DNA of 64,000 nt from a virus. Where the stretch lies: the IMG/VR virus record IMGVR_UViG_3300034166_000560, one strand, 5' to 3'. Of this stretch, positions 3,881 to 28,542 are shown piece after piece (the stretch's first letter is position 1; each line of letters opens with the position of its first letter). Position numbers and translations under genes: made by a program. The notes beneath the pieces were generated by a model. It saw only the letters and a list, made by a program, of their open reading frames with translations. It ran no database searches and was not told the DNA's origin.

Positions 3881-4303
3881 AGTGAACTTCTCCAGTGTGA
3901 AAATATTTTTGCGGATTTTTTTAGATCTAAGTACCTTAACCTTTTTGGTCGTTGGTGGTGGGCGGAATATTTGTTTAAGTCCGGGTCCCCCGACAGCCAA
4001 GCACTAGCTCCTGCAAGGGGGGGGGGGAGGCTTGACTTTTCCTCTATCTTGGCGTATTACTTAAAATTGGCACGACGATATCGCACCAAGTCCACATACA
4101 ACTCGATCCAAACTCCATAAGCCACACCAAGCACGAACAGAGCAATAAACTCCATGATCCTTCTCCTCTAACAGTCCGTTTCAAAACCCTCATAGCCATC
4201 ATACCACCAAAACTTGGCGATGTCAAGCAAACTCTTCTCCGTAGCCACACCCAGAGCTTGACCATGCATTAATGCCTTCCAGAGCAGATAGTGTGACAAA
4301 TGA

Positions 4304-6188: not shown

Positions 6189-6407
6189 GCGGAAACTGGA
6201 CCATTACTCCACTTTTTTTGAAAATAATTTTGGGCTGGTGGTGGCCTCCACCCTCCCGCCTTCCCTATTACTATACCTGATCCCAGCCAAAATGTCAAGC
6301 GACGACTCGACCATACGAGCAAAAATAAAACTGCGCCCTACAGCACAGTCTTAGCTTGCTTTATTATTGGATTGTAGTAATATTATAATAGAAATAAGGA
6401 GAGCAAA

Positions 6408-6584
6408 ATGTTAAAACTCCACCGTTTAAATAAAGCCGAAAATATTAATGATGAATATAATAATATTAATAACGTGGTGGCTTATATAGTTAGTGAGGGT
6501 TTTATGGGCCATGATACGGTCGTCGGTTACGTTTATTTAAATGAAAATAATAAACTCCGACGGGAATATTGCGGCTGGCTTTAA
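6408..6584 (+). CDS. 58-aa hypothetical protein (not in the ORF track)
   Basis: AAGGAG RBS, MLKLHRLNKAEN...CGWL*, promoter TTGCTT-N16-TAATAT at 6356-6383. Confidence 0.6.
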   Translation: MLKLHRLNKAENINDEYNNINNVVAYIVSEGFMGHDTVVGYVYLNENNKLRREYCGWL

Positions 6585-6731
6585 TATAATAAAATAGTAA
6601 TTCACCGGAGCTAATAGTTTAATTACTATGGCTCTTGGTGATTACTGGGGCTTTATAATAATTAATAAACACACCGACCAAACAACGATTACATTTCTAA
6701 AACGGGATTTAAATTCCCCCTAAATATTCCC

Positions 6732-7504
6732 CTAATTACTCCCCTCCTCTCGTTTTAATTCCTCTACGATTTCATTCGCCAAATCTATTTGTTCAAAGTA
6801 ATCTAATATCTTATTCTCCCATTCCATAATATCAGCGTAATCAGCCCCGAATATAGCGGCAAACGATAGAGTAACTTCCTCTTCTAATAGTTTATTCCCA
6901 TTAGTAGTATCAATTACGGTTAATAGGCCAGCGTATTCGTGTACCCTAGTAACCTTACAGGCGTAACGATTATCTAATTCCGCTTCCCATATTGGTTTCA
7001 TTTAAACCATTCCTTTCTCAATTCCCCTAGTATATCAATAAACCATTTTGGCCCGAATACTAATACGCCTATTGCTAGTAATATAGAGCCGAATGATAGA
7101 ATTAGACGGGAGGCGATATTTAATAGTAGTTTCATTTAGGCTTATCCTTATTCATTTCTATATTATGGAGGTCAATAATCAATTGGAGCAATTGTAATTG
7201 AGTTCTATCATATCCTATTCCGGCATATGTTTTACTCTTTTCTTTTGCTTCAACTAATCTAGTATAATGACGCTTTTCGTTATTAATCCATTCTATTTGT
7301 TTGGGCGTTAATATCATTTTAATCCCCCTCAATCTTAATATTCTTCCAATCCGGGAGTAATTCGAATAATACCCGTTTCGCCTCTTTAATTGATTTACTC
7401 TCTACTATTTCCTCTACCCTTACCGGATAATAATCATTATCATATAAAGCGGCAATTAAACGGTAATATTCGCCGTATTTCTCTATAGTAACTCGCTTTT
7501 CCAT
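6732..7504 (-). CDS. small hypothetical proteins (6732-7001, 7132-7317, 7319-7504)
   Basis: ORFs with RBS, behind promoter TTGTCA-N16-TAGAAT at 7528-7555. Confidence 0.6.
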
Positions 7505-7676
7505 TTCGTTTCTCCTCTTATATTATCATTCTACCCTATTCCGGGAAAATGACAAGCGGCGACTGGAGTGTAGGAGACAAGTTGACTATCAAAATTATTT
7601 TAAAAAAAATGGAGTTATGGCTCAGTTAGCGCTTGCGTTTTTCGAGGATTGAGGTAATATAAGAATATAAGCTGAA

Positions 7677-8734
7677 ATGAAGGAAACTGAAATGACCTAT
7701 TCCTACCCGACTAAAACTGAGCTGTTCTCCGTTATGGCTCAGACTACGTTTAAGCCTTTTGATAAAATGGACTGGGACGCCTTTGCGGGCTGCGAAACTA
7801 AAAATCCGCTTATCGGTTACTACGGCGATTTTACTATTGTAATTGACGGCGGTTTAATTAATATAGTCCATTCCGAGGATATGTATGGCGGTCAATTGTT
7901 TGAATTAAACAAATTGGCCTAATTCTAATATAATAGGAGAATTACTATGGATAATATCAATAGAGAATGGGTTATTCGCACAAACGAATTAGCCGATTTA
8001 TATGATAATAAACAGGTTAATTTAGACGAATTCTCCGACGACCAGTTAGTATATCTGGCCTATTGGAATTGGGGTTATTCCGGTGCAGCTAAAGCCAAAG
8101 AGGCGCTAGAATGCGAGGCGGAATTAATTCGTCGTGGCAATCCTTATAATCAGGAATACGCCGATAAATTACTCGATTTATGCGAGGATTATCAATGAAA
8201 TATAATCTATCTGAATGGGAATTACAGGATATTGTTGACTTACTAGAGCATTCAGGCTATAGTAGCGATGATATTACATTCGCTGATTATAAACATATGA
8301 ATAGATACGGCCAAGCTGTGTTTACTATCGGCTACGACGATATTGACGGCGAGCCTGGAACTGGTCGAGTCTACGTTTCGATAAAAGATGGGCGCTTTGT
8401 AGCTGAGTTCTAGGTCATTCAGTAGGTCAACTCATAGGTCAGGAGATAGGTCATGAAGTTCCGTGTCACCAATAACTACCGTGATTCTAATATGACTGGC
8501 TTCCTTGGCGAAGTCAATACTACCTACGCTCGCCTTGTTGAAGTGTTTGGTCAGCCACTAAGCGGCTCTGGCGACGGGAAGGTAAACTCCGAATGGATTA
8601 TTAGGTTTGCCGACGGCAATGTAGCCACTATTTACGATTGGAAATTGCCGGAGACGCCTACCGAGGATTATTCCTGGCATATTGGCGGTCATAAGCGCTT
8701 CGTAGTGGCTCGGGTGGCGGCGTTGGTCGCCTAG
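7677..8734 (+). CDS. operon of four small hypothetical proteins (7677-7922, 7947-8198, 8195-8413, 8453-8734)
   Basis: Promoter TTGCGT-N16-TAATAT at 7633-7660; AGGA(G) RBS before three of the four, the third translationally coupled. Confidence 0.7.
8411..8453 (+). repeat. TAGGTCA x4 at an exact 12-bp period
   Basis: Starts at 8411, 8423, 8435, 8447. Confidence 0.95.
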
Positions 8735-8825
8735 TAGGTCAACGTGTAGGTCACAGCGTAGGTCATTCAGTTGGTCAACGGGTTGGTCAGGGTGTAGGTC
8801 AGCCCATTGGTCGTTGTCTAGGTCA
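8723..8825 (+). repeat. T(A/T)GGTC(A/G) x9 at an exact 12-bp period
   Basis: Starts at 8723, 8735, 8747, 8759, 8771, 8783, 8795, 8807, 8819; variable 5-bp spacers. Confidence 0.95.
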
Positions 8826-8907
8826 GCTGTTAAGCGTCTTAATTAATGCATCAACAATAGTAATTACAAATAGCCAATATACTAGGCCAATCATCATTCC
8901 TAATAAT

Positions 8908-9135
8908 CTAGGCATCATCATCTCCAATATATTTCTTCCACTCTTCACTAGTAATTCCAGTCTTAATAAACTCTCGCTGTCCCGCTGATAGGTCAGGGAA
9001 TGCATCTTCAATATAAAGTTTACCGTGAGTCCAGGCCAGATAGCGGCGCTCAAACTCGTCCTGTTCGTATTGGTCAATCAGTAGGGTATGCCACTGGTCA
9101 GATATTGGTGATTGCTTGGTTATTCTAGCGGGCAT
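8908..9135 (-). CDS. hypothetical phage protein
   Basis: IEDAFPDLSAGQREFIKTGIT motif. Confidence 0.65.
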   Translation of the reverse strand: MPARITKQSPISDQWHTLLIDQYEQDEFERRYLAWTHGKLYIEDAFPDLSAGQREFIKTGITSEEWKKYIGDDDA

Positions 9136-9719
9136 GGTAATAAATTCTCGCCTTGTTTCATAAACTGAAATACAATAGAATATCTGGGCGTTGTAGCAAT
9201 AGAGGAAATAGGAACTGGCTTATGCATTAGGCCAGAATCAAATATTACTATTCTTCCTGGCTTCGCTGCCACTGCAATCTCGCACTCGCCATTCTTATTA
9301 CAGAATAGAGTCTCGCCTTGCCAATCCTTATCCCAATTACTATTGGCGTAATAGAGCATTGTCTGGTCGCCTGTATCCCTCGGAGCTCCAGCGTCGACAT
9401 GCCAGAAATACTTCGAGCCTTCCAGAATAGCATTACACCAGCATCGAGTTAATACTCTGGCTGTCAGAGTCTCGTCTAATAGATGCATAATATTCTGTCC
9501 CTCGAAGAAAGACAGATTGACGATATCCTCTTTACTAAAAGACGAAGAGGGATATATGTATGCACTATGCTCTTGAAGAGTCGTAGAGGATGAACGGAAT
9601 TGGAAATACGATTGGGTGAGGAATTTGTGTATGAAATAGACTTTCTGAGGATCGAATACGTCGTCGAATATACGTATTTTATCTCCTGTAGTCGTAATCA
9701 AAAAACTATATTTCATCAT
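9120..9719 (-). CDS. Fe(II)/2OG oxygenase family protein
   Basis: HVD...LYY.N..W..DW.GET...PGR.VIFD...H...R motifs. Confidence 0.85.
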   Translation of the reverse strand: MMKYSFLITTTGDKIRIFDDVFDPQKVYFIHKFLTQSYFQFRSSSTTLQEHSAYIYPSSSFSKEDIVNLSFFEGQNIMHLLDETLTARVLTRCWCNAILEGSKYFWHVDAGAPRDTGDQTMLYYANSNWDKDWQGETLFCNKNGECEIAVAAKPGRIVIFDSGLMHKPVPISSIATTPRYSIVFQFMKQGENLLPCPLE

Positions 9720-9758
9720 ATCATCCTATAGGAAAAGAGGGGAATGAATCCCCTCTAA

Positions 9759-26913: not shown

Positions 26914-28542
26914 ATGAAAATTGTAGGTGTTACTGGCTATCATGATAGTAGCGCTGTATTGTTGCAAGATGGCGAAATAAAATTATTCTTCAAAGAAGAA
27001 AGACTTGTTAGGCAAAAACGTGCCTTAACTGCAGTTTCTTCTGTTGATGAAATACTAAAACATCACAAGGATATAGATTATTTCGCCCTCTGCGACCATC
27101 ACGATAGTGAATATACATTCTATAAATCTTATAAAAGAATTTTCGGAACAGAAATTAAAGATTACACTTCTTCGCATCATTTATGTCATGCAAGCCAAGC
27201 ATTTTATAATAGTGGATTCGAGAATTGTTTGGTTTTTGTTATTGATAGAAATGGCGCTGCTATTGAAGGATTAGTAAGAGAAGCTGAAACTGTATTTGAA
27301 GCGTCGTATCCTTGTAATTTCCGAACGTTACATAAAAATTATTGGATACATAATACAGAAAAAGGGTTTTATGATAAATTCCCTACACTATTAAATAAAT
27401 TTAACAATCAAACTAAATTTTCGTTCAACGCTGATAGTAATATGAGTATTGTTAAAGTTTACGAATCAGCTACGACCCTAATAGGTCAATGCCCATTAGA
27501 AAATGGTAAAACAATGGGATTGGCATCTTATGGAAAAGATAAACAATTTATTAATTTTTTCCAAAACAATCGTCCAGTTGATAATTTGTTTTTGCATGAT
27601 AATTTTGTAGTAGATTACGTTGAGTCTACTTTATTTAAAGAATATGAAAACAATATAAACTTTGATCTGCGCAAAGACAACTACCAATTTTATGCGGACT
27701 ATGCATATCAAGTCCAGAAACAAACGCAAGAACAAGTATTGGATATGGTTTCTCAATGGGTGAGAAAAACTGGTATAAAACAGGTATGTATTACTGGCGG
27801 TTACGCTTTGAACGTTGTGTGTAACGAATATCTTATCAGAAATTTACCAGAGGTTGAATTTTATTTCGAGCCTCTGGCTGATGATACTGGTAATAGTATC
27901 GGCGCTGCTATGTTATTACACAGATCTTTAACCCAAGATAATACTAGAACAAAATTAAAACATACATTTTTCCACGGAAAGAATGTAAAACCCAAAAATA
28001 TCGGAAACGACTGCACTACGCAGGATATAGTTCGTCATTTAATAAACCAGAAAACCGTTGCGGTGTATAATGGCATGGCAGAAGCTGGGCCAAGAGCTCT
28101 TGGTAATAGATCTATTCTATTCGATGCTCGTAATCCAAACGCAAAAGAAATAGTTAATATCATCAAACAAAGAGAGTGGTATAGACCATTCGCTGGATTT
28201 ATTTTAAAAGAATATTTCCAAGAATATTTCGAAACTCATGGTTTGGACAAATCAGAATTTATGACAATTTCTTTCAGCTGCAAAAGAACAAATGTTATTC
28301 CGGGTATTGTTCATGTCGATAATAGTTGTAGAATACAAACTGTTGACGACGAAATTCCACATATGAAAGAATTGTTATTAAACTTCTATGATGAGACTGG
28401 ATGTCCTGCATTATTGAATACCAGTTTTAATCTGGCAGGAGATCCTCTGATAGAAACACAGGAAGAAGCTATTGAATGTTTCTATAGGTCTCAACTAGAA
28501 GTTCTTTGGTTTCCTGAAATTGGAAAATGTTTGACAAAATAG
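26914..28542 (+). CDS. carbamoyltransferase (NodU/CmcH family)
   Basis: HDSSA, EER..R.K, HHLCHA, GGYALN, E.GPRALGNRS, RE.YRPFA, LNTSFN. Confidence 0.92.
   Translation: MKIVGVTGYHDSSAVLLQDGEIKLFFKEERLVRQKRALTAVSSVDEILKHHKDIDYFALCDHHDSEYTFYKSYKRIFGTEIKDYTSSHHLCHASQAFYNSGFENCLVFVIDRNGAAIEGLVREAETVFEASYPCNFRTLHKNYWIHNTEKGFYDKFPTLLNKFNNQTKFSFNADSNMSIVKVYESATTLIGQCPLENGKTMGLASYGKDKQFINFFQNNRPVDNLFLHDNFVVDYVESTLFKEYENNINFDLRKDNYQFYADYAYQVQKQTQEQVLDMVSQWVRKTGIKQVCITGGYALNVVCNEYLIRNLPEVEFYFEPLADDTGNSIGAAMLLHRSLTQDNTRTKLKHTFFHGKNVKPKNIGNDCTTQDIVRHLINQKTVAVYNGMAEAGPRALGNRSILFDARNPNAKEIVNIIKQREWYRPFAGFILKEYFQEYFETHGLDKSEFMTISFSCKRTNVIPGIVHVDNSCRIQTVDDEIPHMKELLLNFYDETGCPALLNTSFNLAGDPLIETQEEAIECFYRSQLEVLWFPEIGKCLTK

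Follow-up and report, generated by a model that had tools for sequence, protein, structure and literature searches.

Phased YWGGTCR repeat arrays among small early genes of a T4-like phage clade, and their possible role as RNA-level punctuation

T4-like phages carry promoter-early stem-loop (PeSL) cassettes, in which a sigma70 promoter is combined with a terminator hairpin (Arbiol et al. 2010, PMC2839356; Comeau et al. 2014, PMC4122927). The gain, loss, and expression of small early T4-like genes are understood for PeSLs only, and the clade described here seems to use another device. Intrinsic terminators and the REP/BIME-type extragenic repeats of enterobacteria are GC-rich hairpins that follow stop codons, often between convergent genes, and REP/BIME-type repeats, which vary in tandem number, are thought to stop or stabilise transcripts. 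Short direct repeats also occur in centromere and operator arrays bound by ribbon-helix-helix (RHH) proteins, as in those of R1 parC (5 + 5 repeats of 11 bp) and of the omega protein (7-bp heptads), and as plasmid iterons. The SRL and SRR arrays of phage T7, as Dunn and Studier reportedly described in 1983, consist of a heptamer with 5- to 6-bp spacers and lie beside the terminal repeats. Finally, evenly spaced 12-nt repeats with an undefined role have been noted at oriE of T4 (Kreuzer & Brister 2010, PMC3016281). In the T4 genome (our comparison locus L150, NC_000866 79,400-79,560), those repeats lie inside the C-terminal repeat region of gene 5 with a 24/48-nt period, and the oriE "12-nt iterons" may simply reflect the beta-helix coding repeat of that gene.

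Here we analyzed a 64,000-nt stretch of viral DNA (the window) whose array locus is called W; related and comparison loci are labelled G or L with a number. On sequence, the virus is a distant T4-like myovirus of lytic type, with a DNA polymerase 48% identical to cyanomyovirus polymerases and with genes for a ligase, a DnaB-type helicase, and ribonucleotide reductase. The G+C content of the window is 39.8%, and megablast against known phages returned no match, none being close in DNA. Small early genes and many sigma70-type promoters surround the arrays (Table 1), and the order of the 81-, 83-, and 77-aa genes recurs in G001, G005, G006, G007, and L151. Homologues of the 75-aa gene adjoin arrays in G001, G004 to G007, and L062 and are present in array-free L119 too; the 75-aa product gave no informative match. 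The window also encodes a 2OG-Fe(II) oxygenase (9123-9719, minus strand) and a Nol-like carbamoyltransferase (26914-28542, plus strand), which may have a role in DNA or nucleotide modification. Its longest GATC-free stretch (6279-9650, 3371 bp, against a window mean of 4.3 GATC per kb) covers the arrays and the divergent promoter region. On the minus strand at 6270-6353, a T-run hairpin is followed about 30 bp on by a near-consensus TTGACA-17-TATAGT promoter, with others at 4067-4089 and 9736-9756, and the PeSL-like terminator-promoter cassette at 6270-6353 indicates that the phage also has ordinary stem-loop punctuation nearby.

Table 1. Features of the array locus, in window coordinates
Feature	Coordinates	Strand	Basis
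Three operon genes (81, 83, and 77 aa), first of the small early operon with the arrays	7677-8413	+	ORFs
Array 1, junction array, 4 TAGGTCA units	8411-8453	+	motif positions
93-aa ORF, no function assigned	8453-8734	+	ORF, homologues, AlphaFold2 model
Array 2, end array, 9 YWGGTCR units	8723-8825	+	motif positions; orthologous arrays
RNA hairpin within array 2 (predicted)	8775-8810	+	folding
32-aa ORF, hydrophobic membrane peptide (predicted)	8823-8921	-	reverse-frame translation
75-aa gene, phrog_20898, conserved neighbour beyond the end array	8908-9135	-	PHROG match

Both arrays are built of heptamers with an exact 12-bp period. The four TAGGTCA units of array 1 begin at 8411, 8423, 8435, and 8447, and the nine in-phase YWGGTCR units of array 2 begin at 8723, 8735, 8747, 8759, 8771, 8783, 8795, 8807, and 8819, those at 8723 and 8807 being the variant TTGGTCG. 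The 64-kb window contains 31 TWGGTCA motifs versus 16.5 expected, a count that none of 100 shuffles reached, and the longest in-phase chain was 9, versus 1 to 2 in 100 Markov-1 simulated sequences. The four plus nine heptamers at exact 12-bp spacing reported in an earlier note on this DNA are therefore present beyond what chance chains produce. As that note also claimed, array 1 absorbs a stop codon, a ribosome-binding site, and a start codon: its first unit supplies the TAG stop (8411-8413) of the ORF at 8180-8413, its last spacer (GGAGA, 8442-8446) is a predicted Shine-Dalgarno site, and the final A of its last unit opens the ATG at 8453. Array 2 begins within the last codons of the 93-aa ORF, such that its first unit is coding and the other eight are noncoding, and the TCA of its last unit is the reverse complement of the TGA stop (8823-8825) of the minus-strand 32-aa ORF, an arrangement repeated in L151, L155, and G006. 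The convergent gap thus consists wholly of array, and the placement of array 2 at a convergent strand switch is borne out.

The W arrays are not a coding tetrapeptide repeat, as the sense frame contains TAG, one reverse frame contains TGA, and the remaining reverse frame, open in array 2 by construction, has no start. Reverse-strand coding of array 2 and a +1 frameshift of the membrane peptide were rejected for want of a start codon and of a consistent slippery site, respectively. Fusion of 8180-8833 into one protein by TAG recoding or read-through was likewise rejected: TAG is a normal stop that terminates 14 of the 105 ORFs, a suppressor tRNA is absent, and every gene starts with a Shine-Dalgarno site and an ATG of its own. 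A promoter scan found no site within 8411-8453 or 8723-8825 and no unit at the operon promoter, and promoter function of the arrays was rejected. The cumulative GC-skew minimum lies at 17-18 kb, and an origin or terminus signal in GC skew at the arrays was rejected. The arrays have 44 to 53% G+C in a 40% genome and are flanked by coding DNA. Spacers were about 60% G+C in a sample of 93 units from the clade, versus 40% for the genome, and those of end arrays are pairwise complementary, which contradicts the idea that spacers vary freely. The shared register of the two arrays (312 bp = 26 x 12) holds in W, L154, and L158 and fails in G001 (279 bp), G005 (255 bp), and G007 (293 bp), and is therefore not a conserved property.

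Scanning viral contigs for three units in phase gave at least 118 loci, most of them coding tetrapeptide repeats, and noncoding arrays at the same locus were found in about 15 related environmental T4-like loci. In whole-record scans of eight records, including one 98%-complete genome of 162 kb, arrays were on one strand, at a single locus, and codirectional with the small plus-strand operon. End arrays orthologous to array 2 contain 6 to 12 units and occur in L151, L154, L155, G006, and others. Array 1 is more variable: upstream of the 93-aa gene there are four units in W and G001, three in L154, L158, L280, L282, G005, and G007, one in L151, and none in L155, G006, L156, L157, L159, and L286, among relatives that are 83 to 87% identical in the 93-aa protein. 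Three relatives of 74 to 168 kb, at most 86% complete, contain no array. In protein identity, W is nearer to L119 than to the array-bearing G006 and G004, and thus loss of the arrays from L119 appears to be the simpler reading. In L026 and L112, the arrays lie at a different convergent junction, near replication genes. The search of related phages that had been proposed for an array-plus-gene unit therefore found arrays that recur, at one locus per genome, but no such unit, as array 1 has 0 to 4 copies and other genes are flanked as well; absence from homologous loci, which was to count against the proposal, was seen at the L119 and L130 junctions, and about 15 loci carry arrays. We conclude that the enclosure of one gene by two arrays is incidental.

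Outside the clade, 119 four-unit arrays were found in bacterial and archaeal genomes, and a cellular counterpart was rejected, as nearly all of these are coding repeats. The repeat is also coding in L144 (reverse complement, 1653-1767), on the opposite strand, where a 68-aa ORF with D(Q/P)xx repeats lies just upstream of the homologue of the 75-aa gene; array DNA is therefore able to switch between coding and noncoding. L144 and most database matches are thus coding tetrapeptide repeats. In L034 (400-5100) and L039, tandem small reverse-strand genes consist almost entirely of 12-nt (tetrapeptide) repeats, and their TTGGTCA motif is a coding coincidence unrelated to the arrays.

Selection on motif and phase, which the earlier note had proposed, is supported by comparison of orthologous end arrays, in which GGTC is 100% identical, the heptamer 83 to 98% identical, and the spacers 56 to 82% identical, with almost no phase breaks. 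The end array of L157 (2747-3020) alternates TAGGTAAacacg and CTGGTCAacaca in identical 24-bp repeats, interrupted by an N scaffold gap; the identity of the repeats points to a recent expansion, which suggests ongoing slippage or unequal exchange. We conclude that the arrays are real, selected, and lineage specific.

Junction arrays coincide with gene starts and with the borders of gene cassettes. The joint unit-GGAGA-unit-ATG is found upstream of the 93-aa gene and of at least five unrelated genes, and the five junction arrays tested had no excess RNA structure against a spacer-shuffle control (z from -0.4 to +0.7). G001 equals G005 plus a 147-bp cassette bounded by TAGGTCAGGAGATAGGTC (an 18-bp joint), and cassettes in L159 and L141 have duplicated unit-spacer segments on their flanks. 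The slot 3' of the 93-aa gene holds zero, one, or two different genes depending on the phage, and units lie at the borders of gene insertions and deletions among relatives. As every joint carries the same 18 to 21 bases, the arrays could also serve as recombination joints. In L062 (5960-6460), two tandem sigma70-type promoters are followed by an apparently noncoding leader of about 280 nt and then by an 8-unit array; GU-rich and CA-rich arms of the leader form a long predicted hairpin (-78.6 kcal/mol, z -1.9), and a 48-aa ORF (6425-6571) would translate the array as xGQx repeats.

Most end arrays, in contrast to junction arrays, are predicted to fold as RNA. The core GGUC, extended as UGGUCA, is self-complementary when G·U pairs are allowed, and its reverse complement is not. 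In W, two units with the spacers acggg and gccca form a predicted 9-bp stem, including three G·U pairs, with four outer pairs and an 8-nt loop (-12.9 kcal/mol; z -2.8 against dinucleotide shuffles, the control for all four hairpins; -10.5 kcal/mol for the reverse strand). Predicted hairpins are longer in G001 (12 bp, -18.9 kcal/mol, z -4.9; reverse -15.2), G006 (16 bp, -26.5 kcal/mol, z -5.5; reverse -13.4), and L156 (23 bp, -28.1 kcal/mol, z -8.1; reverse -15.3). The reverse strand folded more weakly in all four because G·U pairs turn into A x C. In a matched test in which units were fixed and spacer letters alone were shuffled (L158 left out), 10 of 14 end arrays folded better than at least 96% of controls (z from -1.8 to -4.2). 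The L151 array was marginal (z -1.4, with 9.7% of controls folding equally well), and the W and L062 arrays gave no signal (z +0.2 and -0.65, respectively); folding of the 136-nt region of W gave a z of -1.5.

Spacers appear to co-vary in a way that preserves the hairpins. A 16-pair helix of the relatives, homologous to the W hairpin, was paired in 98% of cells with two pairs changed on both sides, versus 23 to 55% for a slid partner, and a 15-pair helix was paired in 96% with one CG-to-UA change; slid-partner controls over both helices gave 16 to 55%, and the two alignments contain three compensatory pairs. Each alignment comprised 4 to 5 related sequences, and the observed covariation score was reached by 38 and 91 of 500 shuffles. 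Moreover, the complementary spacer pairs differ by lineage (acccg:gcggg, actcg:gcgag, taccg:cggta, aggcg:gcgcc, and acgcc:gggcg), and such complementarity, being Watson-Crick, could reflect a DNA-level inverted repeat. As the samples are small and related, the covariation is good evidence for the hairpins and not conclusive. The hairpin takes up only 2 to 3 of the 6 to 12 units, and the outer units are equally strict in core and phase.

The hairpins resemble intrinsic terminators in being GC rich and differ in having no U-tract: a terminator scan found no terminator-like site in the arrays and no T-run after the hairpins, L026, where a canonical terminator is made out of units, being the exception. 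L119 and L130 carry, at the end-array junction, a canonical bidirectional terminator of hairpin plus T-run and no array, and in L284 two units are followed by an ordinary terminator. As array hairpins lack the U-tract, termination is an analogy only, and we propose more generally a role at transcript 3' ends. Membership in an Rfam family was rejected, as array RNA gave no match.

The earlier note had named the 93-aa ORF as a candidate binder of the arrays, and this proposal, which the analysis does not support, was rejected as unlikely. The protein belongs to no Pfam or PHROG family, has 58 environmental homologues, and in an Atlas search matched viral hypothetical proteins only. Its AlphaFold2 model (pLDDT 94.6) best matched 6z1p_AR, a ciliate mitoribosomal protein (Z 8.8, rmsd 2.5, 92 residues), followed by adaptin-appendage platforms (Z about 6); these predicted similarities are not diagnostic, and no nucleic-acid-binding fold was among the structure matches. 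Moreover, gene and arrays are separable: L119 encodes a homologue at 70% identity with zero arrays in 45 kb, more distant homologues (Manatee Spring virus, Melnitz) are array free, and in L062, L141, L026, and L112 arrays are present and the gene is not beside them. The gene does share sequence with the arrays, as codons of its C-terminal helix (..VVARVAALVA) align as in-phase array-like units. The in-phase Val codons are GTC in array-bearing genomes, a codon that makes up 12% of Val codons in large genes, and GTT in L119. This leaves two options, namely that the array motif imposes itself on the codons or that slippage of TTG-GTC-GCC-TAG gave rise to the array.

We tentatively favor, at somewhat under even confidence, the reading that the arrays are RNA-level punctuation of early transcripts and at the same time a PeSL-like cassette joint. 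Three features argue for RNA over a protein filament on DNA: units lie on the sense strand only, the hairpins depend on wobble pairs, and arrays overlap ribosome-binding sites. The unit would be Y-W-G-G-U-C-R plus a 5-nt spacer, read mainly as sense-strand RNA. A junction array such as array 1 would place a few units between two genes, with the last spacer as the Shine-Dalgarno sequence and the last unit spanning the 7-nt gap to the AUG; such arrays, being unstructured, might act as a portable translation-start joint. In end arrays such as array 2, the GGUC/UGGUCA core would self-pair through G·U, and complementary spacers would close 2 to 3 units into a GC-rich hairpin that reaches 23 bp at most and immediately follows the final stop codon, in the position that an intrinsic terminator occupies in array-free relatives. 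Such a hairpin would end, insulate, or stabilise convergent early transcripts, whether by terminating transcription with no U-tract, by blocking 3' exonucleases, or by offering RNase III a site; we do not choose among these. Array joints would also be recombination sites where phages acquire and drop small gene cassettes.

An extended form of this reading, which we consider somewhat unlikely, is a self-propagating gene punctuation in which one 12-nt unit provides end hairpin, start site, and recombination homology and an oligomeric protein may read the outer units. The 7 + 5 geometry of the unit would equal that of a Shine-Dalgarno sequence and its AUG, so that a start site arises from the last copy; a handful of copies would suffice for an end hairpin wherever their spacers match; and repetition would let each gene boundary recombine with all others. 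A reader of the outer units would account for their strict conservation and phase. Because only 2 to 3 units enter the hairpin and the W array folds no better than spacer-shuffled controls, hairpin punctuation has a live rival in a protein that reads the repeats, whether on RNA or on DNA.

On RNA, a multimeric protein could read UAGGUCA/UUGGUCA repeats on early mRNA, repressing translation where units flank the Shine-Dalgarno sequence and AUG, with the end array as a nucleation site or a CsrB-like decoy for a host factor. The sense-strand-only orientation, the exact bracketing of Shine-Dalgarno sequence and AUG by units, the unstructured junction arrays, and the L062 promoter and noncoding leader that run directly into eight units are all consistent with such an operator or sponge, which would also account for the conserved units outside the hairpin. 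We nevertheless think it unlikely, as no candidate protein and no match to a known RNA family was found, the central end-array units are paired rather than exposed, and genomes without junction arrays have the same genes behind ordinary joints.

On DNA, an oligomerising phage or host protein could sit on each double-stranded heptamer, and the array could then block or insulate transcription, act as an iteron-type origin, be a small-terminase (pac) site, or function like a centromere. The cooperative protein-filament site proposed in the earlier note belongs here and is only partly supported: selection on motif and phase, recurrence in related phages, and the single locus per genome were confirmed, and orientation, G·U hairpins, and ribosome-binding-site overlap point instead to RNA. 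A single locus per genome, strict phase with an invariant core in all units including those outside the hairpin, and the location of the end array at a strand switch fit a DNA platform, and a 12-bp period over 6 to 12 units would suit a ring or helical filament. Yet 12 bp is off the helical repeat, such that bound proteins would spiral around the DNA, unit number is unstable (0 to 4 at junctions, and the L157 expansion across a scaffold gap), L119 lives without arrays, and the operon promoter lacks units. Among the eight neighbor proteins (7.7-10.1 kb), which include small family-less ones, Pfam and PHROGs gave no ParA/ParM-type NTPase or adaptor family as expected beside a partition centromere, no Rep, initiator, or helicase-loader family, and no terminase family. 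Nor was there an AT-rich unwinding element or skew switch of an iteron origin, as the arrays are GC rich (up to 53%) and the skew minimum lies elsewhere. Finally, a DNA platform leaves the placement of units over ribosome-binding sites and start codons at many unrelated joints unaccounted for, and we regard it as unlikely.

That the arrays are a minisatellite of little function, born by slippage of a gene 3' end (TTG GTC GCC TAG, encoding L V A stop), changed neutrally, and copied by recombination, is improbable: in-phase units do encode the C-terminal helix of the 93-aa family, identical adjacent spacers and 24-bp expansion indicate ongoing slippage (L157, L062, and L159), coding tetrapeptide repeats of many phages and bacteria, including L144, have the same motif, and arrays can be lost (L119), but in the absence of selection GGTC would have diverged among five genomes whose spacers differ by 18 to 44%, yet it is 100% identical, phase is maintained without indels, spacers co-vary to preserve the hairpin, and their G+C content is 60% in a 40% genome. 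Further alternatives considered were Rho loading, which 12 nt per subunit fits, although G outnumbers C on the sense strand and the 7-nt motif exceeds what Rho needs; tandem weak Shine-Dalgarno sequences, in which AGGU would pair with the anti-Shine-Dalgarno sequence, yet half of the units are UGGU; T7-type primase sites (5'-TGGTC); the elemental pause consensus, from which the motif is one base off; and Type III restriction-site decoys.

The extended, self-propagating form would amount to a previously undescribed class of modular element, both regulatory and recombinational, in phage hyperplastic regions. If RNA-level punctuation is confirmed, the arrays would be a second independent case of regulatory punctuation that doubles as a gene-shuffling substrate. 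They would also be a compact natural part (about 20 nt per joint and 40 to 60 nt per end) and a caution that short phased phage repeats are not necessarily protein-binding iterons. A factor that reads the repeats may yet await discovery, given how conserved the outer units are.

Among known systems, RHH-bound arrays and iterons likewise group short direct repeats, at times into two blocks, and are read cooperatively; they lie, however, at promoters or origins beside a gene for a binder and an NTPase or initiator, none of which was found at W, their periods are 7, 11, or 22 bp rather than 12, and the coupling of units to the sense strand and ribosome-binding site has no counterpart among them. 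The T7 SRL and SRR arrays are alike in their conserved 7-mer, variable 5- to 6-bp spacers, roughly a dozen copies, and two blocks, but they border the concatemer junction in a podovirus whose genome ends are fixed, whereas array 1 is dispensable in close relatives of W. Homology with the T4 oriE iterons (gene 5, antisense repEA/repEB) was rejected, as the motifs are not similar and the W arrays are noncoding and lie in another region. CsrB/RsmZ sponges differ in motif (GGA, not GGUC), in that the central units of W are paired, and in that no Rfam family matched. Like intrinsic terminators and REP elements, end-array hairpins are GC rich, lie directly 3' of a stop at a convergent junction, and vary in copy number; unlike them, they have no U-tract, consist of direct repeats rather than palindromic units, and occupy one locus rather than hundreds.

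PeSLs come closest. Like PeSLs, the arrays are short, conserved, and noncoding, separate small non-essential genes in the hyperplastic early part of T4-like genomes, have a stem-loop at the 3' end of a transcription unit (the end-array hairpins with their covariation), and bound insertions, deletions, and replacements between relatives (the 147-bp cassette and the variable slot). Unlike PeSLs, they contain no strong sigma70-like early promoter, their downstream part being a ribosome-binding joint instead; they are a phased heptamer repeat whose hairpin arises from the repeat units through G·U pairs; and there is no sequence similarity between the two. New here, on good though not conclusive evidence, is that a self-pairing GGUC core and complementary spacers together give the hairpins of most end arrays. 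We conclude that the closest concept, on the best reading, is the PeSL, implemented with a different device.
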